From positions 6,177 to 30,176 of the forward strand of contig JBHHXT010000042.1 of the NCBI GenBank assembly GCA_046757165.1: 24,000 nt of DNA, given 5' to 3'. A program made the translations under genes and the position numbers. Positions 1,265-12,195 of this stretch are shown piece by piece. Source of the stretch: a bacterium. GTDB lineage: Bacteria > Zhuqueibacterota > Zhuqueibacteria > Oceanimicrobiales > Oceanimicrobiaceae. The notes under the pieces were generated by a model. That model made no database searches. It was not told the DNA's origin and was given only the letters and a program-made list of their open reading frames with translations. The first letter of the stretch is position 1; every line of letters starts with the position of its first letter.

Positions 1265-4200
1265 CTACGTAGCAATCAACTTCACCTGCGTGTCGTAGAA
1301 GGATGACGACCCGCCGATTATGTCTTCCAGACAAACATTCTTCATCACCGGGTCCACTGCCATGACGGCATTGGGGCAGAGGCCGCTTTTCCGGCTCTTG
1401 TCGCCCGGGATTTTCTGATTGTCGATGATGACATCGTTGGCGCCATAGGCCCAGTGGCCAAAATGCCAGGAAATCGCAATGACGCCCGGGCGCATGCCTT
1501 CGATCACTTTGAGCCTGCCTTCCACCGGAATCACGTCACCATTCTTGAGATCCCAGATACCTTCCTGGTTCGTCGCCGAGACGACCCGCACTTTATCGCC
1601 GTCTTTCAGGCCGAGCTGCCAGGCTGTGGCAGAGTTGATGTGGATCAGGTTCTCCGGTAAGATTGCGGCCAACCAGTAGTCAGTCGGTAGTGTGCGTGAC
1701 TGGCCGCCGGTAATCTCCTTATAAGTAATCAGGTGCAACGGATAGTGGCCTTTGTCGAGCGGACGGTCATCAAACCCTTTGACCGGCTCTGCCAGGCCGA
1801 TGCCGGAAAAACGCTTGCCGGTGTAGGGGTGCCGCGTCAGAGCGACGTCCTCCACATAAATGCTGAACATTTTCTTGAAAGGGTGCGGCTGCTTGTCGCC
1901 GCTGTTGCGGTACTTGTCGAAGTCTTCAAAGCGGCCGCCGCGGTTCAGGACATAGACCACCTTTTTCCACCAATGTTTGCCGTTTGCGTCAATCGCGGCG
2001 CGCTTGAGCCTGTTCGGGTCCAGCACTGCCGGCGACAGGTGCTTGCGCGCATCCATGAAGACCTTTATTTCGTTTGCATCTGCGTCCGGGACAGCCTGGC
2101 CGGGTTTGTCGCCGGCCGCAATATTGGCAAACATTTTCACGTAGTAATCTTCCGGTCGGGTGAAGTCCATGCCCGGGCCAAAGCCATCCTTGCCGTGGCC
2201 CGGCAATTTCAATCTTTCCGCAACGGCCAACATGATCGCTTCCATACTGACCGGCATTTCTTCGCCATAAACGGTCACCTTCTCGACCAGCGGTTCTACC
2301 GTAGGTTGGCGAACCTTGGACTGCAGGACCGGGCAGGCGGGCGTCGTGTGCGGCGTGCCCCAGCGCTCCCAGACGGCCGTATCCGGAAAGATATAATCGG
2401 CATACATGGAAGTTTCGCCGATCACGATATCGCAGGCAAAGTAGAGCGGCACCTTGTCGAAATCCAGCAGGGTCTTGATCACGCGGTCGCCTGCAGGCGT
2501 GGATAACACAGGCGTACCTTTGTGCGTGAAAAGCGCTTTGATCGGGTAGGGGTAGCCATCCTCTGCTGAAGGCAGGATCTCCTGGTAAATCTCGTTGGAG
2601 TGCGGAAACCAGGGTCGTTTTGCCGGATAACCGTGCTCGCGAAACAAAGTGCTTTCCTCATATTTTGCTTTTTCACGGGTGATCTTGTAGCCGCAGGCGG
2701 TCAATTTGCCCGGATGCAGGCTCTTTTTCAAATTGAACGGCTGGCCTTTTTTGCTGCCGTCTTCATGCCAATGGCTGCCGCCCTTGGAAAGACCGCCTTT
2801 CCAGTCCGGGTTGCCGACCAGCAGGTTGAGCGTGATGATGGCCTGCGCGTTGTAGTAGCCATTGGTATGCTGCACTGGCCCGCGGTAGAGCTCGGCCACC
2901 GATTTCTTGCCGTGCCTGGCAAATTCAACCGTCAGCTCAACGATGTCTTCTACCTCAAGGCCGCAAAGCTCGGCCCACTCGTCCATGGACTTGTTCCTGG
3001 CATAATCTGTCAGAATTCGGAATGCTGATTTCACCTGAACTTTGCCGACCTTACCGCTATAAAAGAGGTCGCCTTCGATAGCTTTCTTCTCGTCGTAGGG
3101 GTTGAAGGCCAGGGGACTGCCGTTGCGCATGACAACAAACTCATCCTTGCCGCCACGGCCAATGTCGGCAGCGCGCAGCAATCCGGCCGGGCCATCTTTT
3201 TCAATTTTGACCAACCAGGTGGCGTTTGACCATGTCGTTTCACTGTCCTGCCTGGCGGCGGCTTTGTTGGCATTGGTCAAATAGGTTTTATCATACTTGT
3301 CATTCTCCAACATCCAGCGGATCATCGCATTCGCGAGTGCGGCGTCTGTGCCCGGTTTGAGTGGCAGCCACTTCCACGCCTTGGCAGCGGTCTTTGAGAG
3401 TCGCGGATCGACTACAGCAATCTTCAGTCGGCCCGTGACCAGATTGTTGGTGACCAAGTTACTCAGATATGGCGGCCCAAAACTGGCATCAAACGGGCTG
3501 GTGCCGAAGAAGACAACAAACTCGCTGTTGTAGAGATCCGGTTTCATGTGGTGCTTCCCTTTGCGCCACTTGCCGTCCTTAAATTGTTCGGTCATCTTTT
3601 CATAAGCAATGTGGTGCGACTGCTCGCAAATCGAGGTGTGCAAATGATAGTTGGTGCTGCCAAAACCATTGTACAACCACCTCTTGCTGAACTCTTTGCG
3701 GCCGTGTTCAACGCGGCCCCCCAGAAAAACAAACTGATTGTTCACCGGTCCAAAATCAGGATGGTTCGGGTCGATCAGTGTACTGAGGTGGTCGCGATAT
3801 TTTGCCTTGAACGCCTTCACGGTCATCTTGCCCTTGCCGACATTTTTTGCGTCGACGGCCATCGCTTTTGACACTTTAGCGTCGCGCAGTCTAAACAAAT
3901 CTTGCAGGCCCGGCACCACGCGGTTTTCTTCGCCCGGCACATTGGCAAAGAGCTTGCCGCCAGTGACGATTTCCAAAATCGCCTGTTCAAAGGGCACCAC
4001 CTGCCATTTGTTCTGGCCGCGTTTGCCGGCACGCTTCAGCACTTTGGTTATGCGGTACGGATCATAAAGACTCTGGATGCCTGCCTGTCCCTTCGGACAA
4101 ATCCCGCCATCGACCTTTGCCGCTGATTTGATGTTGGTGGCATAGGGCAGAGCAGGATTCAGCGTCTGCATGCCGTAAGGATTGCCGTCCACTTTTGCCG

Positions 4201-4444
4201 CCACGCCATCCAGGACCTTAACCTTGATGGGACAGGCTGTGTGACACTGCAAGCAGACCGAGTAGATGACGTTTTCAGCGTTCCCCAGCGGGTATTCCCC
4301 CGCGGCTGCGTACGCCTCCGATACTTTACCACAACTCGAAAGCGTCTGTGCGACTATGCCGGTACCGCCCAGCAACGCCGTCGTTTTGAAAAACTCACGG
4401 CGGCTCAAGCCCCTATTTTCAGGTTGGTTATTGCCATTTTTCAT
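1265..4444 (-). CDS. Tat-exported molybdopterin (bis-MGD) oxidoreductase catalytic subunit, TtrA-like; substrate unknown
   Basis: 1059 aa. Twin-arginine motif SRREFFK. N-terminal [4Fe-4S] motif CLQCHTAC...GGICPKG (CX2CX3C...C). Candidate Cys molybdenum ligand in HTSICEQSHH near aa 273. Its length, the long insert between the FeS motif and the Cys ligand, and blocks such as KRAGKRGQNKWQVVPFEQAI and MIRWMLEND match my memory of Salmonella TtrA. ATGA start/stop overlap with the upstream membrane-subunit gene. Confidence 0.9.
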   Translation of the reverse strand: MKNGNNQPENRGLSRREFFKTTALLGGTGIVAQTLSSCGKVSEAYAAAGEYPLGNAENVIYSVCLQCHTACPIKVKVLDGVAAKVDGNPYGMQTLNPALPYATNIKSAAKVDGGICPKGQAGIQSLYDPYRITKVLKRAGKRGQNKWQVVPFEQAILEIVTGGKLFANVPGEENRVVPGLQDLFRLRDAKVSKAMAVDAKNVGKGKMTVKAFKAKYRDHLSTLIDPNHPDFGPVNNQFVFLGGRVEHGRKEFSKRWLYNGFGSTNYHLHTSICEQSHHIAYEKMTEQFKDGKWRKGKHHMKPDLYNSEFVVFFGTSPFDASFGPPYLSNLVTNNLVTGRLKIAVVDPRLSKTAAKAWKWLPLKPGTDAALANAMIRWMLENDKYDKTYLTNANKAAARQDSETTWSNATWLVKIEKDGPAGLLRAADIGRGGKDEFVVMRNGSPLAFNPYDEKKAIEGDLFYSGKVGKVQVKSAFRILTDYARNKSMDEWAELCGLEVEDIVELTVEFARHGKKSVAELYRGPVQHTNGYYNAQAIITLNLLVGNPDWKGGLSKGGSHWHEDGSKKGQPFNLKKSLHPGKLTACGYKITREKAKYEESTLFREHGYPAKRPWFPHSNEIYQEILPSAEDGYPYPIKALFTHKGTPVLSTPAGDRVIKTLLDFDKVPLYFACDIVIGETSMYADYIFPDTAVWERWGTPHTTPACPVLQSKVRQPTVEPLVEKVTVYGEEMPVSMEAIMLAVAERLKLPGHGKDGFGPGMDFTRPEDYYVKMFANIAAGDKPGQAVPDADANEIKVFMDARKHLSPAVLDPNRLKRAAIDANGKHWWKKVVYVLNRGGRFEDFDKYRNSGDKQPHPFKKMFSIYVEDVALTRHPYTGKRFSGIGLAEPVKGFDDRPLDKGHYPLHLITYKEITGGQSRTLPTDYWLAAILPENLIHINSATAWQLGLKDGDKVRVVSATNQEGIWDLKNGDVIPVEGRLKVIEGMRPGVIAISWHFGHWAYGANDVIIDNQKIPGDKSRKSGLCPNAVMAVDPVMKNVCLEDIIGGSSSFYDTQVKLIAT

Positions 4445-5733
4445 TCGTAGGCCTCCTTCAATTTGTCGGTCGTTTGGGATGGGACTACCCTGACCGCAGC
4501 GGTCTCAGTATCGATGATTGGCAAAATCGATTTGCCGGCCATGAAGATGAACGCCGGTACTCCGATCGTGAACAAAAAAAGAAACCATTCCATCACGCTG
4601 GGAAAGTAGTCGAATGTCAGGCCCGGCCCGGTAAAGGCATGCTTCAACCCTTCGAGCTCGGGGACGGCCAACGCAGGAATAACGATGTTCAGTCGTACCG
4701 AGATGAAGCTGAAGGCGATCAGCGCTCCGGCGGTGCCTACTGCTGTGACTGACCGTGACCGTGATAGCAGCAACAAGCCGGGAATGACGACGCCCGTGCC
4801 AACATGCACGAACCAAAACACCCACCAGAAATTTCCGAACAAAACGAGTTTCAAACTTTCGCTTTCGGATGGCACGGAGCTCCAGAGACCGATGGAGAGT
4901 TCTGCCCATTCCAGCAGAACATCGGTGGCCAACAGAACGAGAACGATGCGGCCCAGCAGTCTGACGATCTTTCGATTTTCCTCCGTATTGCCGTTTGCAC
5001 CCCACACCGCGACAACGAAAGCGAGAAGTGCGGCACCAGAAGTCAATGCGCCGGCAAGGAAGATAATCGGGGTCAGGCCGGAATTCCAGTAAGGCCGAGC
5101 GCCGACAGCGCCGAAGATCGCCCCGACCGAGCCGTGAAACGCGACGGCCAGCGGAATGCCGATGCTGCCAAGAATCTTCAGGACGTTCAAGTCTTTTTCG
5201 TGAGAATATTCCTGGCGACGGTTCGGGTCGAAGCCGATGAGCTTGCAAATAAAAGTATTGGGCGTTTTGGTGTCGGCCTTCTGTACCAGGTCGGCCCGCA
5301 AGGCAAATCTGAACTCAATCAGGAGTAGAATGAAGTAGGAAGCGTACAACCAGGCCATCCAGCCCATGACGGAAGTAAAGTTTGTCTGTGTGAGCATCCG
5401 CCAGACGCGGCTCATGTGACCCAGGTCCAGCCAGATAGCCAACATCGCGCCAACCAGCGTGGCCAGGGCGGTCAGCAGCGCCAGCCGGCCGATCTTTTCG
5501 AATGCCTTGATCCGAAACACGTACACCAGCGCGGACATCAGGAAGGCGCCGGCAGAGAGCCCGATCAAGTAAATGTATCCGGCAACCCACAATCCCCACG
5601 GCACGTAGGAGCCATAGTTTGCGTTGATGTGGCCATTTGTCAGGCGGTCAAAAAGTCCAACCAGCCCGACCATCAATGCTGCGATCGTGAGTCCCCAGAA
5701 AAATCTGTTCCGGGAATTCTCTTGCGTTTTCAT
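4441..5733 (-). CDS. NrfD/PsrC-family integral membrane quinol-interacting subunit (TtrC-like)
   Basis: 430 aa, highly hydrophobic with about 10 predicted helices. NrfD-like N-terminus (YVPWGLWVAGYIYLIGLSAGAF). AGGAG Shine-Dalgarno sequence ahead of the ATG. Sits between the FeS and Mo subunits. Confidence 0.85.
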   Translation of the reverse strand: MKTQENSRNRFFWGLTIAALMVGLVGLFDRLTNGHINANYGSYVPWGLWVAGYIYLIGLSAGAFLMSALVYVFRIKAFEKIGRLALLTALATLVGAMLAIWLDLGHMSRVWRMLTQTNFTSVMGWMAWLYASYFILLLIEFRFALRADLVQKADTKTPNTFICKLIGFDPNRRQEYSHEKDLNVLKILGSIGIPLAVAFHGSVGAIFGAVGARPYWNSGLTPIIFLAGALTSGAALLAFVVAVWGANGNTEENRKIVRLLGRIVLVLLATDVLLEWAELSIGLWSSVPSESESLKLVLFGNFWWVFWFVHVGTGVVIPGLLLLSRSRSVTAVGTAGALIAFSFISVRLNIVIPALAVPELEGLKHAFTGPGLTFDYFPSVMEWFLFLFTIGVPAFIFMAGKSILPIIDTETAAVRVVPSQTTDKLKEAYE

Positions 5734-5745
5734 TTCATTCTCCTC

Positions 5746-6711
5746 TCATAGCAGATAGTGAACTTTTGGCTTGGTGCCCATTTCTTCTTTCAAATGCGTC
5801 ACGTTGGGCTTGCCCATCAGCTCTGCCACCAAACTCCGGGGATCGTTGGCATCGCCAAAGAAGGTCGCGCGTCCGATACAAGTCACAACGCATTCTGGCA
5901 GCATCCCTTTCTCGATTCTGTGCACGCAGAAGTGGCACTTGCGGGCGTTGCCAATGGGTGATTTGTTGTCGACGCGCGGTCTTGCTTGACCGTAGTCATA
6001 AGTCGGGCTTTCTTCGTAGACACGCGCATTGTCGCCGCCGACATAGGCAAACGCAGCTTTCGGCGCATTTTCGGTATAAAAGCGGCCGGTGTCAAACGTG
6101 CGCGCACTGTAGGGACAGGCTGTGATGCAGTAGCGACAGCCGATGCACTGATCGTAGTCGATGTGGACGATGCCATCCGGACGCTTCCAGGTTGCACTCA
6201 CGGGGCAGACGGGTACGCACGGCGGCTCTTCACACTGCATGCAGGGCCGTGGTGTGAACCGGTGTGTCACGTTGGGAAATGTGCCGATCTCTTCTTCCAT
6301 CACCGGCCGGTAGACCACGCCGGGCGGCAGCTTGTTCTCTGCCACGCATGAGACGGTACAGCTATGGCAGCCCGTACACTTGCGCAGATCAATGACCATC
6401 GACCATTTGCGCTTCTCTATCGGTTTTGCCAGCGCCCGCTTCAGGTCGCGGATCATGCGGATAATCGGGTCCTCGTCTGGCATGGGCTCTGGCAGGTCGG
6501 GAAAATCAATCGGCGCTACCTCCGGTTCTGCCGTCTCTGCCAAAGCCGAAAATTTTTTGTCCACGACCATCGGCAGCAACATGGAAGCAAATACGCCCGT
6601 GCCGAATTTTTTCAAAAAACCGCGACGGTCCTCTTCCGCCTCGCCTCGCTCAGCGCTCACAGGCTCCGTCGAATCTTCTATCTGCAAAAGCTTTGTTTTT
6701 TCGTCAGTCAT
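5746..6711 (-). CDS. four-cluster [4Fe-4S] electron-transfer subunit with its own Tat signal (TtrB/PsrB-like)
   Basis: 321 aa. Tat signal [23 protein letters not shown]...SALA. Four Cys groups: [37 protein letters not shown] and CHFCVHR...CVVTC. Confidence 0.9.
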
Positions 6712-6759
6712 GATGACCTCGTCACTTTAAGGGATTGATGACAACATGCGTTGAACATG

Positions 6760-6790
6760 ACTCTGACAGGGTTTGAAACCCTGTCAGAGT
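6760..6790 (-). promoter_or_regulatory. 31-nt perfect intercistronic stem-loop between the porin and the FeS-subunit gene
   Basis: ACTCTGACAGGGTTT-G-AAACCCTGTCAGAGT, with 15-nt perfectly complementary arms. It lies 13 nt after the porin stop and 49 nt before the FeS-subunit ATG. No U-tract follows on the transcribed strand, so it is not a canonical terminator. Confidence 0.6.
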
Positions 6791-6802
6791 TACACTATTG
6801 GC

Positions 6803-7819
6803 CTAAAACTTATAGTAAAATGAAAATCGCGGAATAATATCGCTGTCCGGACTTACGCCGGCGTCATTTTCGCTGTAGAAGACGGCTTCAATATTGGGCA
6901 TCAAATGGATGTTTTTGGCGGGCTGGAAATCCAGGCCGCCGACAAAAAATGTCGACTTTGCGGACGCGTCAAATGGAATGTAAGATATCTTGGCGCCGGA
7001 GGGGTTCGGATCGAACATGCGGTCGATTCTCGCGAAGCCCCAGACTTTCTCCGATAGTTTGGCCACGGCGAACAGAGAGCCGACTTGCAGGGTCATGTCA
7101 TCTGCGCCCGCTACCTGGCGATTCTGGTGCGCAAACTGAACGCCAACGCGGAACGTTTTTTTGTCATAGCCGGCAAATCCTTGCAGGGTGTAACGGTTGG
7201 TTTCGCCGGGGCGTTCTTCGAAGTCGACATAGCCTTCGATGATGAAGCCGGCTTCTGTCTTTGCGCTCACGCTGAACATCGCTTTCTTGCCCTCATTGTT
7301 CTCGGTGCCGTTGCTGGAGCCGTTACCCAGGAGCAGGTGGTATTTGACGCGCTTGTTAGAATCAAGCGTGCCTTTCACGCCAATGCCGAAATCTCGCGAT
7401 GACCCCAGTTTTTGCAAATCAAGCGCCGTCTTCTCAACCGACCGGTAACCCCAGAATTTCTCGACCAGGCCCCAGGTTGGGGTGCCGGAAATGCCCAGGT
7501 AGATACTGTGCTTGCCCTTTTTCCACTTCAAGTAAGCATCTTTGACAACGGGAGTCATTTTGTCTTTGCCGGTGAAATTCCCCGCGCTGCTCATCTCGAG
7601 GCGAAGGCGCATCGAGAAGGCCTCACTCAACCCTTTGTCGAATGCGAAGTAGATACGCCGCATCCAAAACCCATTTGCGCCTTCCAAATCCTCGTTGTGG
7701 TTAGCGGCCATGTAGTAGTAATCGCCAAACATGTAACCGCTGATTTTGCCGCTATCCTGGGCAAAAAGCGGAGCAGTCAATATCAGCATGGAAATGAGAA
7801 TAAGGGCGTGCTTTTTCAT
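6803..7819 (-). CDS. outer-membrane beta-barrel porin, possibly of the anion-selective OprO/P-like type
   Basis: 338 aa. Sec signal MKKHALILISMLILTAPLFA-QD. Alternating amphipathic beta-strand pattern. C-terminal aromatic residue (FSFYYKF). Strong GGAGGA Shine-Dalgarno sequence. First gene of the operon. The subfamily assignment is only an impression. Confidence 0.7.
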   Translation of the reverse strand: MKKHALILISMLILTAPLFAQDSGKISGYMFGDYYYMAANHNEDLEGANGFWMRRIYFAFDKGLSEAFSMRLRLEMSSAGNFTGKDKMTPVVKDAYLKWKKGKHSIYLGISGTPTWGLVEKFWGYRSVEKTALDLQKLGSSRDFGIGVKGTLDSNKRVKYHLLLGNGSSNGTENNEGKKAMFSVSAKTEAGFIIEGYVDFEERPGETNRYTLQGFAGYDKKTFRVGVQFAHQNRQVAGADDMTLQVGSLFAVAKLSEKVWGFARIDRMFDPNPSGAKISYIPFDASAKSTFFVGGLDFQPAKNIHLMPNIEAVFYSENDAGVSPDSDIIPRFSFYYKF

Positions 7820-7901: not shown

Positions 7902-7917
7902 ATCAAAGGCTGTACCA
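7902..7917 (-). promoter_or_regulatory. candidate sigma-54 (-24/-12) promoter for the porin-reductase operon
   Basis: The minus strand reads TGGTAC-AGCCT-TTGAT, against the consensus TGGCAC-N5-TTGCW. GG-N10 spacing is correct, but the -12 element is GA instead of GC. It lies 83-98 nt upstream of the porin ATG and 99-133 nt downstream of the tandem palindromes. Weak on sequence alone. Confidence 0.3.
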
Positions 7918-8015: not shown

Positions 8016-8050
8016 CGTCGAAATTTCGGCGGCTAGACGTCGAAATTTCG
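8016..8050. promoter_or_regulatory. two identical palindrome-containing sites; candidate enhancer (UAS) for the adjacent NtrC-family activator
   Basis: CGTCGAAATTTCG occurs twice without mismatch, at 8016-8028 and 8038-8050. Each copy contains the perfect 10-bp palindrome CGAAATTTCG. The 22-bp spacing puts both copies on about the same helical face. They sit between the activator stop (8110) and the porin start (7819). Confidence 0.45.
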
Positions 8051-8109: not shown

Positions 8110-9513
8110 TCACGCCGGGATTGTTCCGCTCGCCCCGGGCTGGTCTTCCGCGGGGTTTTGATACTCGATACCATGTTTGTTGATTTTGCTTTTCAAGGTC
8201 GACGTGGGAATGCTGAGAAGTTCTGCTGCTTTGGCCTTGTTGCCGCCCGTCTTCGCCAGCGCCTGAGAAATAAGAGCTTTTTCAAGATCGGCGACAGTGG
8301 CTTCGAGCGCTAAAGGTTTGTCCATCTCATTTGGGGCCGGCCTGACCCCGAACCTCCGCTCACGGATTTCACCGGGAAGGCAGTCCGGTACGATAGGGTT
8401 GCACCGGCAGGAGAGCATCAGCCGTTCAACCACGTTTTTGAATTCACGCACATTGCCTGGCCAGGAATAATCCATCAAATCCTGATAGACTCGTGGGTCG
8501 ATTTCAGGGATTTCCCCTTGCCGAAATTCGCGGACAAAATGTGTGAAGAAAAGCTGAATATCTTCTTTGCGCTCTCTAAGGGGTGGCAGTTTGATAGGAT
8601 AAATGTTCAAACGATAAAAAAGGTCTTCACGGAACCGGCCCTTGGCAACGAGCTCACGCAGATTGCTTTTGGTCGCCGCGATGACACGGACATCGATCTT
8701 GAAGGTTTCGGTGCCCCCCACCCGTTCAAACGTGCGTTCTTCTAAAACCCGTAGTAGTTTGACTTGTAATTCTATCGGGATATCGTCCACTTCGTCGAGG
8801 AAGATGCTGCCGCCGCTGGCGAGCTCAAACCGTCCCCTCTTTTGTTTTACGGCCCCGGTGAAGGCGCCGCGCTCGTGACCGAAGAGTTCGCTTTCCAAGA
8901 TGTCCTTGGACAGCATGGCGCAGCTCACCTTGATGAACGGCTTGTCTTTACGTGGCGAGTTGTAATGAATGGCGTTGGCGACCATCTCCTTGCCTGTGCC
9001 GGTTTCCCCTTCGATGAGGACGGTCGCCTCAGTGGGGGCGACAATCTCGAGCTGCTTGTAGATTTCTCGCATGGCGTTGCTCTTGCCGATGAGTTGGCCA
9101 AATGAATATTGTCTCTCCAACTCTTCTTTGAGTCTAATATTCTCAGCGACCACCCGGCGATAATCTTTTACTCTTTCCAACAACAACAGCATCTCATCCA
9201 TGCTGAAGGGTTTGGTGAAGTAGTCATACGCGCCAGACTTCATGGCTTGCACGGCTGTTTCTACGGTGGCGTAAGCGGTCATCATGATCACCGTGGTGTC
9301 CGGTTGAATTTCCCTTATTTTCTTCAGCAACGTGATGCCGTCGATACCGGGCATTTTCAAATCGGAAATGATAACATCGAATGATTCCTTTGCCATCAGG
9401 TTGAGCGCCGCCCGGGCGGATGCGGCCGCCGCGGTTTCATACCCGGCGTCTCGCAAATCGTCTTGCAACGAGACACGCTGGATTTCTTCGTCCTCTACAA
9501 TCAGGATCTTCAT
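8110..9513 (-). CDS. sigma-54-dependent response regulator (NtrC-family bacterial enhancer-binding protein)
   Basis: The track ORF extends to 9609. I start it at MKILIVEDEE (ATG 9513), 16 nt after the kinase stop. It has a REC domain (ISDLKMPGIDG), an AAA+ domain with Walker A GETGTGKE and the sigma-54 contact motif ESELFGHERGAFTGA, and a C-terminal Fis-type HTH (GNKAKAAELLSIPTSTLKSKI). Confidence 0.9.
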   Translation of the reverse strand: MKILIVEDEEIQRVSLQDDLRDAGYETAAAASARAALNLMAKESFDVIISDLKMPGIDGITLLKKIREIQPDTTVIMMTAYATVETAVQAMKSGAYDYFTKPFSMDEMLLLLERVKDYRRVVAENIRLKEELERQYSFGQLIGKSNAMREIYKQLEIVAPTEATVLIEGETGTGKEMVANAIHYNSPRKDKPFIKVSCAMLSKDILESELFGHERGAFTGAVKQKRGRFELASGGSIFLDEVDDIPIELQVKLLRVLEERTFERVGGTETFKIDVRVIAATKSNLRELVAKGRFREDLFYRLNIYPIKLPPLRERKEDIQLFFTHFVREFRQGEIPEIDPRVYQDLMDYSWPGNVREFKNVVERLMLSCRCNPIVPDCLPGEIRERRFGVRPAPNEMDKPLALEATVADLEKALISQALAKTGGNKAKAAELLSIPTSTLKSKINKHGIEYQNPAEDQPGASGTIPA

Positions 9514-9529
9514 GTTCACCCTATCCGGA

Positions 9530-11584
9530 TCAATGCCCGATCGCGTCTGGCCGCAGGAGTTTCTGAGCTCGAGCCAGCTCATCAGGTGTATTGACATTGA
9601 GAAAAGCATGCCTGGAATAGAACACCAATCCCGGTTCCATGCGTACGATGCGCGTCCTCACCTTGTCATAGAATTGAGAGACTTTGTGTTCCCCCAGTTC
9701 AATCTGCGCCTTGATAACGGGAAGACATTTCTTCTTATAGACCGCGCACAGGGGCTCGACGCCTGATTCGGACTCGAACGCGAGGACGTCATAGGGAGCA
9801 CAATTCTCGCACAGGAAGCGGATGAGCTGCCGGGACAAGAATGGCAGGTCGCAGGCAACAACCAGACAGTGCTCCGTTTGTGAGCGCTGCAACGCGGTAT
9901 AAATCCCTGCCAGTGGGCCGAAGTTTGCGACCGCATCCGGATACACTGGCAAATTGAGAAATCTGTACTCCTGCTGCTGGTTGCTGATAACCACGATCTG
10001 CTCGAACTGTTCCCTGAGGCTATCGACAACACGCGCGATCATGGGTTTGCCGTCAACGAACAGCAGCGCCTTGTTCTGCCCCATGCGAGACGATGTTCCA
10101 CCCGCCAGAATCGCAGCGCTGACATCTTGGCTGCTCATCCCCGAAAGCGATTTCGCGGAGGGGAACATGACACGAAATACCGTACCAGTGCTGCTGCTGG
10201 TGAAGCAAATCTGTCCTTTATGTTCATCGATGATTTCTTTCGTGACCGCAAGCCCCAGTCCGGTTCCCTTGCCGCTAGGCTTGGTCGTAACAAAAGGGTC
10301 GAAGATAGAATGCTTGATTTCGAGAGGAATGCCCTTTCCAGTATCCTTCACATCCACTAATACACCATTTTCGGTGGCCTCAGAAACAACGCTAATTTGA
10401 CCGCCTTCGTCGGTCGCGTCGACCGCATTCAACAGCAGGTTGACAAACACCTGCTCGAGATGTTGGGCATCTCCCAGGATCGTTGGTAAGTCTTTTGAGA
10501 GCGACAGGTCTAACCGCACGCGCTGTTTCTTGAGTCGGAGTTCCACCAGGTGGCAGGAGGCGGTAATGATATCATTCACCGCAATCGGTTGAAACATGAT
10601 CTCTTTTTTGCGGGAGAAATTCAACAAATCCCGGATGATATTCTCGATGCGAAGCAACGCGCTATCCATCAGTTTGGCATATTTCTTTGTCTGGGCGGCA
10701 TCCCTTGGACTGGCGATAATCCGACGCAGGCAATTTCGAATGCCGGCAAGAGGATTGTTGATCTCGTGTGCCAGACCTGAAACCAGCGTGCCGATCGCAG
10801 CAAGTTTCTCCGTTTGGATGAGCGCCTTTTGTTGGTGATCCTGCTCCTCGGCGGCGGTTCTCAAGCGGCCGAGCATGTCTTCGAAACCACGCTCGAGTTC
10901 GCCGATCTCATCCCGGCGCTTCCCCGCGATGTTGGCCTCATAGGTCGGAACTTCGACTTTTGCCATCTCTGTCGCCAGCTTCTTGATGGGGCTGGCCAAC
11001 GTGCGGGCAACCAAAGATGCAATCAGAACGCCCACAACAGCGAATGCAAGACTGACGATGAACATCCAGCGCTTGAACGCGTCAGCCCGGCCAAATTCTG
11101 ACTGACGGCTGAACTGCATCAAAAGTGTACCGAGCCGCTTGCCGCTATTCTCGAGCGGATAAGCGATTTGAAAGACCGGGTCTTCCCTGTCCTGTACTAT
11201 CTGTGGCTGAGCAAGAGCCATCCACCGCTGCGCCGCCTGCGACTCTTTGTCCTGGATGTATTGCCGATGATCGTCGCTCGCCAGGACGCCACCGGACGCG
11301 TCAACAACCATAACGTGTGTGACCGCGGCCATGGAATTAGCCAGCAGATCCTGGATGTAGTTGTTCAAAAGTCCATCCTCCTCAATCAGGCCCCGCTCCT
11401 GATACAAAAGCGTATTAGTGAACGAAATGGCGGCGGACGCAGCCAGGACAAGGGCCCGCCTTTCGGCCTCGGAGAAAAGCTGATTGCGATAAACATCCAC
11501 GATGAAAATGTTTGCGACAAAACTGCAGGCGGCTATGATCGCAGAGGCCAGGCCGATGAACTTCCTTTCCAGAGTCAAGCGCAT
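9530..11584 (-). CDS. membrane sensor histidine kinase fused in-frame to a C-terminal MobA (molybdenum cofactor guanylyltransferase) domain
   Basis: 684 aa in one ORF. Order of parts: TM1 (aa 9-30), an extracytoplasmic segment of about 140 aa, TM2 (aa 173-193), HAMP, HisKA with H-box SGLAHEINNPL (His273 at nt 10766-10768), and HATPase_c (NLLLNAVDA, DTGKGI, GTGLGL). A short linker is followed by MobA motifs at aa 483-684 (nt 9533-10138): AILAGGTSSRMGQNKALL, FGPLAGIYTAL, VVACDLPFLS and FLNVNTPDELARAQ. Confidence 0.9.
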   Translation of the reverse strand: MRLTLERKFIGLASAIIAACSFVANIFIVDVYRNQLFSEAERRALVLAASAAISFTNTLLYQERGLIEEDGLLNNYIQDLLANSMAAVTHVMVVDASGGVLASDDHRQYIQDKESQAAQRWMALAQPQIVQDREDPVFQIAYPLENSGKRLGTLLMQFSRQSEFGRADAFKRWMFIVSLAFAVVGVLIASLVARTLASPIKKLATEMAKVEVPTYEANIAGKRRDEIGELERGFEDMLGRLRTAAEEQDHQQKALIQTEKLAAIGTLVSGLAHEINNPLAGIRNCLRRIIASPRDAAQTKKYAKLMDSALLRIENIIRDLLNFSRKKEIMFQPIAVNDIITASCHLVELRLKKQRVRLDLSLSKDLPTILGDAQHLEQVFVNLLLNAVDATDEGGQISVVSEATENGVLVDVKDTGKGIPLEIKHSIFDPFVTTKPSGKGTGLGLAVTKEIIDEHKGQICFTSSSTGTVFRVMFPSAKSLSGMSSQDVSAAILAGGTSSRMGQNKALLFVDGKPMIARVVDSLREQFEQIVVISNQQQEYRFLNLPVYPDAVANFGPLAGIYTALQRSQTEHCLVVACDLPFLSRQLIRFLCENCAPYDVLAFESESGVEPLCAVYKKKCLPVIKAQIELGEHKVSQFYDKVRTRIVRMEPGLVFYSRHAFLNVNTPDELARAQKLLRPDAIGH

Positions 11585-11749
11585 GACATAAACTCACAGG
11601 GTTTGTTCCGAGGGTTCGCTTGTTGCAGCCCTCGTTGTATCGCTGTCGAGAACAGTAGATAATTAGAATATTTGACGAGAAAATCAAGAGGGAAGCAACA
11701 CGCAGGAACGATCTTCGCGGATTTGGGCCTGGCGCTCCACCTTTGTGAG

Positions 11750-11777
11750 TCAAGTAGAAGATGTGATTGGCCGATAA
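11750..11777 (+). promoter_or_regulatory. candidate sigma-28 (FliA-type) promoter upstream of the HPt gene
   Basis: TCAAG-N15-GCCGATAA. The -10 element matches the GCCGATAA consensus exactly. The -35 element is TCAA/CAAG rather than TAAA. It lies about 65 nt upstream of the ATG at 11842. Confidence 0.4.
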
Positions 11778-11841
11778 GTCCTAGGATGAATTTCACCTCA
11801 AAGAGAGCATTCGTAAAACATTGAGCAAATGGTGTTCGGTC

Positions 11842-12195
11842 ATGAGTGAGACAACGACAATCGACGTAACTGTTATTGAACAGCTCAAAGAGCTGGTTGA
11901 CGACGAAGATCCCGATTTCCTGACAGATCTTTTTCAAGAATACCTCGAGGACGTCACAACCCACCTCTCGAAGCTGGTCCAATCGATCGAAGCGATGGAT
12001 ACGGTAACCGTGGTGAAAACGGCTCACACGCTCAAAGGCGCAAGCAGCAACCTGGGAGCCAGGCACATGGCTGAGCTTTTCACGGAGTTAGAGAAGACGG
12101 CGAAAAGGGAGGATGCGGATGGCGCCAGGAAGCTTCTGTCAGAACTGCAGAAAGAATTTGGCAACGTCCGGAAGGCCATGAGTGCTTACTTATAG
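11842..12195 (+). CDS. single-domain histidine phosphotransfer (HPt) protein
   Basis: The track ORF starts at a TTG (11821). I prefer the ATG at 11842 (MSETTT). HPt signature KTAHTLKGASSNLGA, with the phosphorylatable His at nt 12025-12027. All-helical composition, about 117 aa. Confidence 0.8.
   Translation: MSETTTIDVTVIEQLKELVDDEDPDFLTDLFQEYLEDVTTHLSKLVQSIEAMDTVTVVKTAHTLKGASSNLGARHMAELFTELEKTAKREDADGARKLLSELQKEFGNVRKAMSAYL

Follow-up and report, generated by a model that had tools for sequence, protein, structure and literature searches.

Organization of the operon

The DNA analysed here, hereafter the window, is a 24,000-nucleotide stretch of contig JBHHXT010000042.1 (positions 6,177 to 30,176 of the forward strand) in assembly GCA_046757165.1, from a bacterium of the family Oceanimicrobiaceae (Zhuqueibacterota), and the system in question is an operon encoding an outer-membrane porin followed by the three subunits of a molybdoenzyme that resembles tetrathionate reductase (Ttr). 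Positions without a prefix are those of the window. All four genes lie on the minus strand, where the preliminary description of this DNA had placed them. The first cistron (6803..7819, 338 residues) codes for a predicted 16-strand outer-membrane porin of a Pho-regulon, Porin_O_P-like family. It is followed by the B subunit (5746..6711, 321 residues), a putative ferredoxin with four [4Fe-4S] motifs exported by the twin-arginine translocation (Tat) pathway, by the C subunit (4441..5733, 430 residues), an integral membrane protein of the quinol-interacting NrfD/PsrC type with approximately 10 helices, and by the A subunit (1265..4444, 1059 residues), a Tat-exported molybdenum bis(molybdopterin guanine dinucleotide) (Mo-bisMGD) enzyme that carries the FS0 cluster motif, Cys273 and a Gly-Arg pair (G243-R244) and belongs to a Ttr-like clade named type I below. 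The B-C-A order that had been reported for the three enzyme genes is thus found at 6711-5746, 5733-4441 and 4444-1265, and the ATGA overlap between the C and A genes can be read directly in the sequence. The gap between B and C is 12 nucleotides and the one between the porin and B is 91 nucleotides.

Each subunit bears the expected marks of its class. B has the twin-arginine motif RRGFLKK together with four Cys groups and matches Fer4_11 and related families; of the NCBIfam models it fits TtrB best, with 181.8 bits where 416 would be needed. In the case of C, NrfD (PF03916) is matched at 147.7 bits against a cut-off of 25.8, and hydropathy gives 10 hydrophobic segments, in agreement with the long membrane subunit described beforehand. 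A has its own twin-arginine motif, SRREFF, so that both A and B carry the export signals that had been attributed to them. Furthermore, A displays the FS0 motif C64-x2-C67-x3-C71...C116 and a candidate molybdenum ligand at C273.

The arrangement was compared over a sample of 80 type I loci. All 80 of them combine B-(C)-A with regulators of the same kind, an NrfD gene standing between B and A in about half. Since this set recurs in every locus and the porin in Bacteroidota-type lineages, the arrangement is not a product of chance. The other half or so of the type I loci are B-A operons with no NrfD gene between the two (e.g. L033, L041, L053 and L070), hence those enzymes must draw their electrons by another route.

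The spacer between the porin and B holds a perfect 31-nucleotide palindrome (6760..6790, minus strand) with a 14-bp stem and no U-tract, and the whole spacer, taken as 92 nucleotides, folds with a computed energy of -36 kcal/mol. The palindrome might set the ratio of porin to enzyme transcript. One more near-identical copy (94%) is present in the genome (G000:C139:7780-7813), and the palindrome may be a low-copy palindromic element rather than a signal specific to the operon. In the closest relatives (L009 and L010) the spacer between porin and B is only 23-32 nucleotides, which supports a single transcript.

Phylogenetic position of the catalytic subunit

The preliminary description had called A a long, TtrA-like catalytic subunit, and at 1059 residues, with TtrA as its best-scoring named family, it is indeed one. 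The score on the TtrA equivalog model NF011567 is 489.5 bits (427.8 bits in the genome-wide search) against a cut-off of 1750. Other families are more distant: A reaches 124.8 bits on the ArrA equivalog NF041714 (cut-off 1600) and 186 bits on PhsA (cut-off 694), and the best solved relatives, PsrA and ArrA, score only about 95 bits. In layout the operon resembles the three-subunit, quinol-linked periplasmic reductases of the Ttr and Psr type. By its score A nevertheless falls outside TtrBCA proper, and by score and gene order outside Arr, in which the order is (C)AB, and outside Psr and Phs, in which the order is ABC and the A subunit has about 760 residues. There are many close homologues (55-76% identity), with names from a wide range of phyla. 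A scan with one genome per species found a motif-bearing relative of A in 430 genomes from more than 15 phyla.

In the phylogenetic tree, type I, as we name the clade of the window A and its 430 species genomes, forms a single group. Its sister is another large clade, type II, which includes the presumed enzyme of Melioribacter roseus. The joint clade has a support of 98 in the Shimodaira-Hasegawa-like approximate likelihood-ratio test, and together types I and II are sister to a TtrA-like set. This set consists of six sequences with 718-1497 bits on the TtrA hidden Markov model (HMM), with a Psr-like outgroup; all six lie below the cut-off of 1750 and are not characterised TtrA. In a sample of 301 genomes from the class of G001 (labelled Ectothiorhodospiraceae in its locus record) no TtrA passed 1750 bits, the best being the one at 1497. 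A is thus placed outside the TtrA-like set, and the nesting within TtrA that would have spoken against the preliminary reading is not seen. A family search of five genomes gave no bona fide ArrA, and ArrA was compared solely through profile alignment to a Protein Data Bank chain. Furthermore, Desulfuromusa kysingii holds a type I gene beside three closer relatives of TtrA, which argues for distinct functions. Judged from these scores and the tree, A is not a true tetrathionate reductase; it is best assigned to an uncharacterised sister clade within the Ttr-like group whose members probably reduce arsenate. Among the four Ttr-like paralogues of D. kysingii, one (L105, G002:C9:210500-216500) has an in-frame TGA codon at the column of the molybdenum-ligand Cys and is probably a selenocysteine-ligated Ttr-like enzyme. 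The "Unk" BCA clade of Duval (2008) was considered as the identity of the clade of A and was not confirmable from the text.

A Gly-Arg pair, of which the Arg is R165 in ArrA, an arsenate ligand, has been proposed as common to Ttr-like arsenate reductases, Arr and Arx and as missing from true Ttr (PMC12949373). In the profile alignment to ArrA chain 6cz7, G164-R165 of ArrA aligns with G243-R244 of type I, and the ArrA residues H189, S190 and C193 fall opposite H269, T270 and C273. The pair G243-R244 is invariant in the 20 type I sequences aligned (20/20), and the sequences closest to TtrA (L095, L096 and L089) do not have it.

Ttr-like enzymes that reduce arsenate and not tetrathionate have been described in Anaeromyxobacter PSR-1, Geobacter OR-1, Pyrobaculum and M. 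roseus (PMC5492636, PMC11462812, PMC12949373). The ttr locus of M. roseus (MROS_1076) is accompanied by ArrTSR-like regulators and arsRPCB, and its ttrA transcription rose on arsenate (PMC5492636). Among 166 genomes in the GTDB family of G306 (labelled Melioribacteraceae in its locus record), we found a genome, G740, with a locus that begins with a divergent arsR-arsP-arsC-acr3 group and a PhnD-like protein in truncated form; the genes for a kinase, a sigma-54 regulator and a porin come next, and B, C, A and a member of the CMD family complete it. Because this locus matches the published description of the ttr locus, G740 is very probably the Melioribacter roseus strain so described. Its A subunit is of type II and 48% identical to the window A, its B 63% identical to the window B; the window A lies in the sister clade of the presumed M. 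roseus enzyme and not in the same clade. In this family 14 genomes had a match, each with type I or type II and none with both. When the type II protein was used to search for homologues, neither Melioribacter nor Anaeromyxobacter was named in the best 120 matches. Caldithrix abyssi was set aside as a model, being reported in the literature to lack Ttr.

The porin and its relation to the phosphate regulon

The first cistron encodes a protein with a Sec signal peptide, and its AlphaFold model (mean predicted local distance difference test score 86, predicted template modelling score 0.81) is a 16-strand barrel with a helical L3 loop (helices 118-136), in line with the 338-residue beta-barrel porin predicted from the sequence beforehand. 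The best fold matches are PorB, Omp32, OmpF/C and OprP, at template modelling scores of 0.65-0.70. The porin scores 15.5 bits on PF07396, below the gathering score of 20.9, and weak matches to the same family are found in 31 of 36 porin homologues, the best with an E-value of 1.6e-6. Like OprP and OprO of Pseudomonas (PF07396) and PhoE of E. coli, it combines a 16-strand barrel with an L3 constriction loop, and the likeness to these phosphate-regulon porins extends to the weak PF07396 similarity and to paralogues in pst-pho clusters. However, it is about 100 residues shorter than OprP, with approximately 11% identity in the fold alignment, and unlike OprP and PhoE it is attached to a respiratory operon and not to phosphate uptake.

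The association of the porin with the enzyme was examined by tblastn of the window proteins against the 80 loci, counting for each phylum those with enough upstream DNA. The porin gene stands directly upstream of B in 3/5 loci of Bacteroidota, 3/3 of Calditrichota, 3/3 of Ignavibacteriota and 1/1 of Gemmatimonadota, and likewise in a few unclassified genomes, compared to 0/6 in Campylobacterota, 0/7 in Nitrospirota and 0/5 in Chloroflexota. The synteny that the preliminary description had left to be surveyed is therefore kept in four named phyla. The porin is found with B-C-A as well as B-A operons, and with type I as well as type II enzymes; the porins of M. roseus (G740) and of G365 are 33% identical to that of the window.

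The genome has a second porin, 69% identical to the first, whose gene closes a phoU-pstS-pstC-pstA-pstB-pstB-phoB-phoR cluster; the PstA, PstC, PstS and PhoU encoded there score above their NCBIfam cut-offs. Of 20 further porin homologues analysed from the same phylum, five are in pst/pho clusters and four in Ttr-like operons, and one genome (G910) has one porin in each setting. On the porin tree the two settings are interleaved, and well-supported branches require at least four switches between them. The closest group of the window porin comprises its own Pho-cluster paralogue and the Ttr-operon porin of G910 (support 99/96). Furthermore, all 52 conserved porin positions, 12 of them basic, are identical in both settings. 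By this kinship, the channel at the head of the operon is of the cell's phosphate-regulon porin type, recruited repeatedly, and a porin of that type at this place fits a phosphate-shaped anion as substrate. In the porin-containing pst-pho cluster of the genome, the PhoU at the head of pstSCABB-phoBR-porin is itself fused to a C-terminal LMWPc/ArsC-like domain (G000:C91:9704-10795, L112; TIGR02691 75 bits, below the cut-off), a fusion that may tie arsenate detoxification to phosphate uptake.

A literature search found no published description of a porin in arsenate-respiration operons, and the paper on the M. roseus locus never mentions one (PMC5492636). What appears new here is that the porin cistron is, from sequence comparison, a paralogue of a Pho-regulon porin and is kept with the operon across several phyla, a cultured strain included.

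Regulators and promoter region

Upstream of the porin, on the same strand, lie the genes of a two-component system. The sensor histidine kinase (9530..11584, minus strand), with a periplasmic sCache-like region, HAMP, HisKA and HATPase domains by Pfam and NCBIfam, is fused in frame to a MobA guanylyltransferase, and the fusion spans the full query in L009, L010 and L023. The MobA domain of the fusion is complete, and other relatives have a separate MobA nearby (L029, L065 and L069). Next to the kinase there is no gene for a PhnD-like binding protein, which sets the window apart from most relatives. The response regulator (8110..9609, minus strand) is of the NtrC type, with a receiver (PF00072), a sigma-54-dependent AAA+ domain (PF00158, 239 bits) and a Fis-type helix-turn-helix (PF02954), hence the sigma-54 activator anticipated in place of a LuxR-type TtrR. 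With its counterpart in the ttr-like operon of M. roseus it has 54% identity, and rpoN is present in the genome. As listed, its open reading frame (ORF) overlaps the kinase-MobA gene by 80 nucleotides; since the alignment with homologues begins only at about residue 30, translation probably starts downstream of 9609.

A candidate -24/-12-like sigma-54 promoter, TGGTAC-N5-TTTGA, is located at 7903..7917 (minus strand), 84 nucleotides upstream of the porin ATG. The same variant form is found in L010 and L048, and canonical TGGCAY-N5-TTGC sites occur upstream of the first cistron in L053, L070, L041, L031, L064 and others. In the window the bare sigma-54 pattern is not above chance, with 39 matches against 30 expected, so the promoter call rests on its position and on the relatives. 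Approximately 100-135 nucleotides upstream of this site, a palindrome with the core CGAAATTTCG was read from the sequence in two copies (8016..8050, minus strand), and this pair is a candidate enhancer-binding site.

A further ORF of 163 residues (11575-12066, minus strand) overlaps the kinase start. It is Cys-rich and without a Pfam match, neither the 80 loci nor the rest of the genome holds a homologue, and it looks spurious.

Sensor binding proteins and ars genes in related loci

In 32 of the 80 type I loci a PhnD-like binding protein is encoded upstream of the kinase. The one of L053, a type I locus with the porin, scores 191 bits on ArrX and 153 on AioX, with PtxB and PhnD at or below 66; that of G365, a type II locus, scores 186 bits on ArrX and 132 on AioX, again with PtxB and PhnD at or below 66. 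In eight loci (L033, L035, L041, L045, L057, L046, L068 and L071) two different PhnD-like binding proteins stand in tandem before one kinase, one ArrX-like and the other of the type found in L009, equidistant from the phosphite binder PtxB and from ArrX.

A directed search of type I loci found ars genes within about 9 kb: Acr3 in 6/80, ArsC in 4/80 and ArsR in 7/80. The rough chance expectation for Acr3 over the 80 loci is less than one locus. Linkage to ars genes is thus present in M. roseus and in 6-10 of the 80 related loci. When all the ORFs flanking these 80 loci were clustered, the recurrent neighbours were genes for molybdenum cofactor synthesis, CMD, FmdE and rhodanese, with no ars cluster among the top groups.

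Proposed function and its alternatives

Taken together, these features point to a sigma-54 and two-component controlled operon for the periplasmic respiration of an oxyanion, most probably arsenate, a reading that we hold at a little over one half. The preliminary description had treated the substrate as open with arsenate among several oxyanions, and the choice is here narrowed to arsenate as the most probable. Under this reading, arsenate, a look-alike of phosphate, would cross the outer membrane through the trimeric-type 16-strand porin of the first cistron, which is of the same kind as that of the pst-pho cluster. The NrfD-type C subunit would take electrons from menaquinol, the four-cluster B would pass them on to A, and A would reduce arsenate to arsenite at its Cys-ligated Mo-bisMGD site. 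Arsenite is uncharged at neutral pH, and together with the Pho-type porin this favours the reductase direction. The paralogy of the channel to a Pho-regulon porin is an argument for arsenate independent of the enzyme sequence, given that a duplicate of a phosphate-starvation porin has been attached to the operon more than once.

Several observations weigh against arsenate respiration. No member of the type I clade has been assayed, and the tree was built without the sequences of Anaeromyxobacter PSR-1, Geobacter OR-1, Pyrobaculum and SrdA. The Gly-Arg rule derives from few sequences and the pair is found in two more distant members on the TtrA side (L097 and L105) as well, while the residues around the molybdenum ligand differ, being CEQSHHI in type I and CQGSLYF in type II. 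Neither kind of binding protein is present in the window genome, where only two weak, unlinked PF12974 matches were found, and the closest relatives (L009 and L010) carry the second type, with 79 bits on PtxB versus 75 on ArrX. In addition, the window contains no ars gene, and its genome, of an estimated completeness of 99.98%, has no Acr3 or ArsB match; the sole ars-like cluster, on contig C5, comprises arsR, a methyltransferase that may be arsM, a GNAT protein and an ArsC-like phosphatase. In M. roseus the induction of ttrA was statistically unclear and the authors favoured a Psr-like enzyme as the main reductase (PMC5492636). Finally, a Pho-regulon porin may be a general anion-preferring pore only, like PhoE.

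Several of these points would suit a different oxyanion, reduced or oxidised, such as selenate (as in SrdBCA), antimonate, vanadate, tellurate or phosphite, the substrate of type I then differing from that of type II. We regard this as unlikely, and as the most serious of the alternatives. The distinct motifs after the molybdenum ligand would be expected of it, as would the binding protein of the nearest relatives, no closer to ArrX than to PtxB, the absence of any binding protein and of arsenite efflux genes from the window genome, and the occurrence of both types in some genomes. SrdBCA moreover has the common BCA order and is placed in the wider Ttr group (PMC7331816, PMC10100899). However, ArrX-like binding proteins and ars genes are found in bona fide type I loci, and the 14 Melioribacteraceae genomes, with type I or type II and never both, fit an equivalence of the two. 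As for selenate, it mimics sulfate, and the Pho kinship of the porin fits a phosphate mimic better. A narrower form of the same idea confines it to the subgroup of the window, with its MobA-fused kinase, a binding protein equidistant from PtxB and ArrX or none, and no arsenite efflux genes: its enzyme would act, through the Pho-type porin, on another phosphate-shaped oxyanion, for instance phosphite as donor or vanadate or antimonate as acceptor. Distinctly unlikely as we judge it, this would be, if true, a respiratory molybdoenzyme chemistry not yet described.

That the operon encodes a genuine, divergent tetrathionate (or thiosulfate or polythionate) reductase, serving sulfur respiration or disproportionation at vents, is highly improbable. 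TtrA is the best-scoring named family, the BCA order and the Tat signals on A and B are those of Ttr, many carriers are sulfur-cycle taxa of vents, annotation pipelines label the relatives "tetrathionate reductase subunit A", and a Ttr-type protein is abundant during thiosulfate disproportionation in Desulfolithobacter (PMC9751629). Yet A reaches 489 bits against a cut-off of 1750 and belongs to a clade apart from the sequences closest to TtrA, it has the Gly-Arg pair, D. kysingii has closer TtrA relatives as well, and the regulators are of the AioSR/ArrSR and not the TtrSR kind. The Desulfolithobacter enzyme itself is reported to cluster with authentic Ttr and not with the arsenate group (PMC12949373). 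We also consider it very unlikely that the enzyme works in reverse, as an anaerobic, Arx-like arsenite oxidase for which the porin would be the exit of the arsenate formed. Arr and Arx, though closely related, work in different directions; sequence alone does not fix the direction, and an arsenate porin would serve exit as well as entry. Against this, the sensors of the relatives resemble ArrX more than AioX, the homologue in M. roseus increased when arsenate was respired (PMC5492636), and the published Ttr-like enzymes are described as reductases (PMC11462812).

The last alternative bears on the channel and not on the enzyme, the porin being then a general diffusion pore that by chance comes first in the operon and has no role specific to the substrate. 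The fold matches include general porins as much as OprP, the match to the Porin_O_P Pfam family is below its cut-off, many homologues are in neither the pst/pho nor the Ttr setting, and the carriers in Proteobacteria, Nitrospirota and Campylobacterota manage without a porin. On the other hand, the tight same-strand linkage extends across several phyla, both operon forms and both enzyme types, and the phosphate regulon is the only other recurrent setting found, which together make a chance neighbour quite unlikely.

Arsenate respiration, if that is the function, is of interest beyond this genome. Ttr-like genes are reported to out-express arrA in paddy soils that release arsenic (PMC11462812), and type I comprises about 430 species genomes in more than 15 phyla with no characterised member. 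Given that arsenate resembles phosphate, a near-copy of the phosphate-starvation porin suggests how arsenate may reach the enzyme. This raises the question of whether arsenate respiration in Bacteroidota-type bacteria depends on a dedicated outer-membrane channel that discriminates arsenate from phosphate, a question that we did not find asked in the literature searched. The porin-first layout is present in cultured Melioribacter roseus, which makes the idea testable in an existing strain.

Comparison with known systems

The Ttr-like arsenate reductases of M. roseus and the homologues of PSR-1 and OR-1 have in common with the window the B-C-A order, a Tat-exported, Cys-ligated A of about 1060-1080 residues, the Gly-Arg pair and an upstream kinase and sigma-54 regulator. 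As in the window, the first cistron of the M. roseus locus is a homologous porin. The window differs in that its A is in the sister clade, with another motif after the molybdenum ligand, and that it lacks a PhnD/ArrX-like protein, an ars operon beside the enzyme genes and a CMD gene after them, its kinase being fused to MobA.

TtrBCA and TtrSR of Salmonella enterica and Shewanella sp. ANA-3 resemble the window system in gene order, in the three subunits, in the Tat signals on A and B, in the long insertion before the molybdenum ligand and in supplying the best-scoring named HMM. In contrast, the window A is far below the equivalog cut-off, in a separate clade and with the Gly-Arg pair, the C subunit is longer, with 10 helices, a porin cistron is added, the regulator is NtrC-type and not LuxR-type, and the kinase has no binding-protein domain. 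The AioXSR, ArxXSR and ArrXSR sensors (ArrX 6x6b and 6x8w; AioX 6esk) likewise have, ahead of a molybdoenzyme operon, genes for a kinase and an NtrC-type sigma-54 regulator. Their third component is ArrX-like in relatives of the window, whereas the window itself has no binding protein and a kinase that carries MobA, an unusual sensor set that appears to be new. As for SrdBCA of Bacillus selenatarsenatis SF-1, the BCA order is the same, but the host is Gram-positive and without a porin.

Other genes of the neighbourhood

FmdE, MoaA, MobA and MoeA genes are recurrent near the related loci. In 11 type I loci (L012:12403-12720, L111:18327-18686 and nine others), and in M. roseus and G365 too, A is followed by a small gene of the CMD/AhpD kind, which the window lacks. 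The type I loci of Chloroflexota have a TPR-rhodanese gene immediately before B (L073:6211-6891 and five others). Just downstream of A in the window, an orphan receiver-only response regulator is encoded at 672-1118, with 47% identity to residues 18-117 of the M. roseus response regulator.

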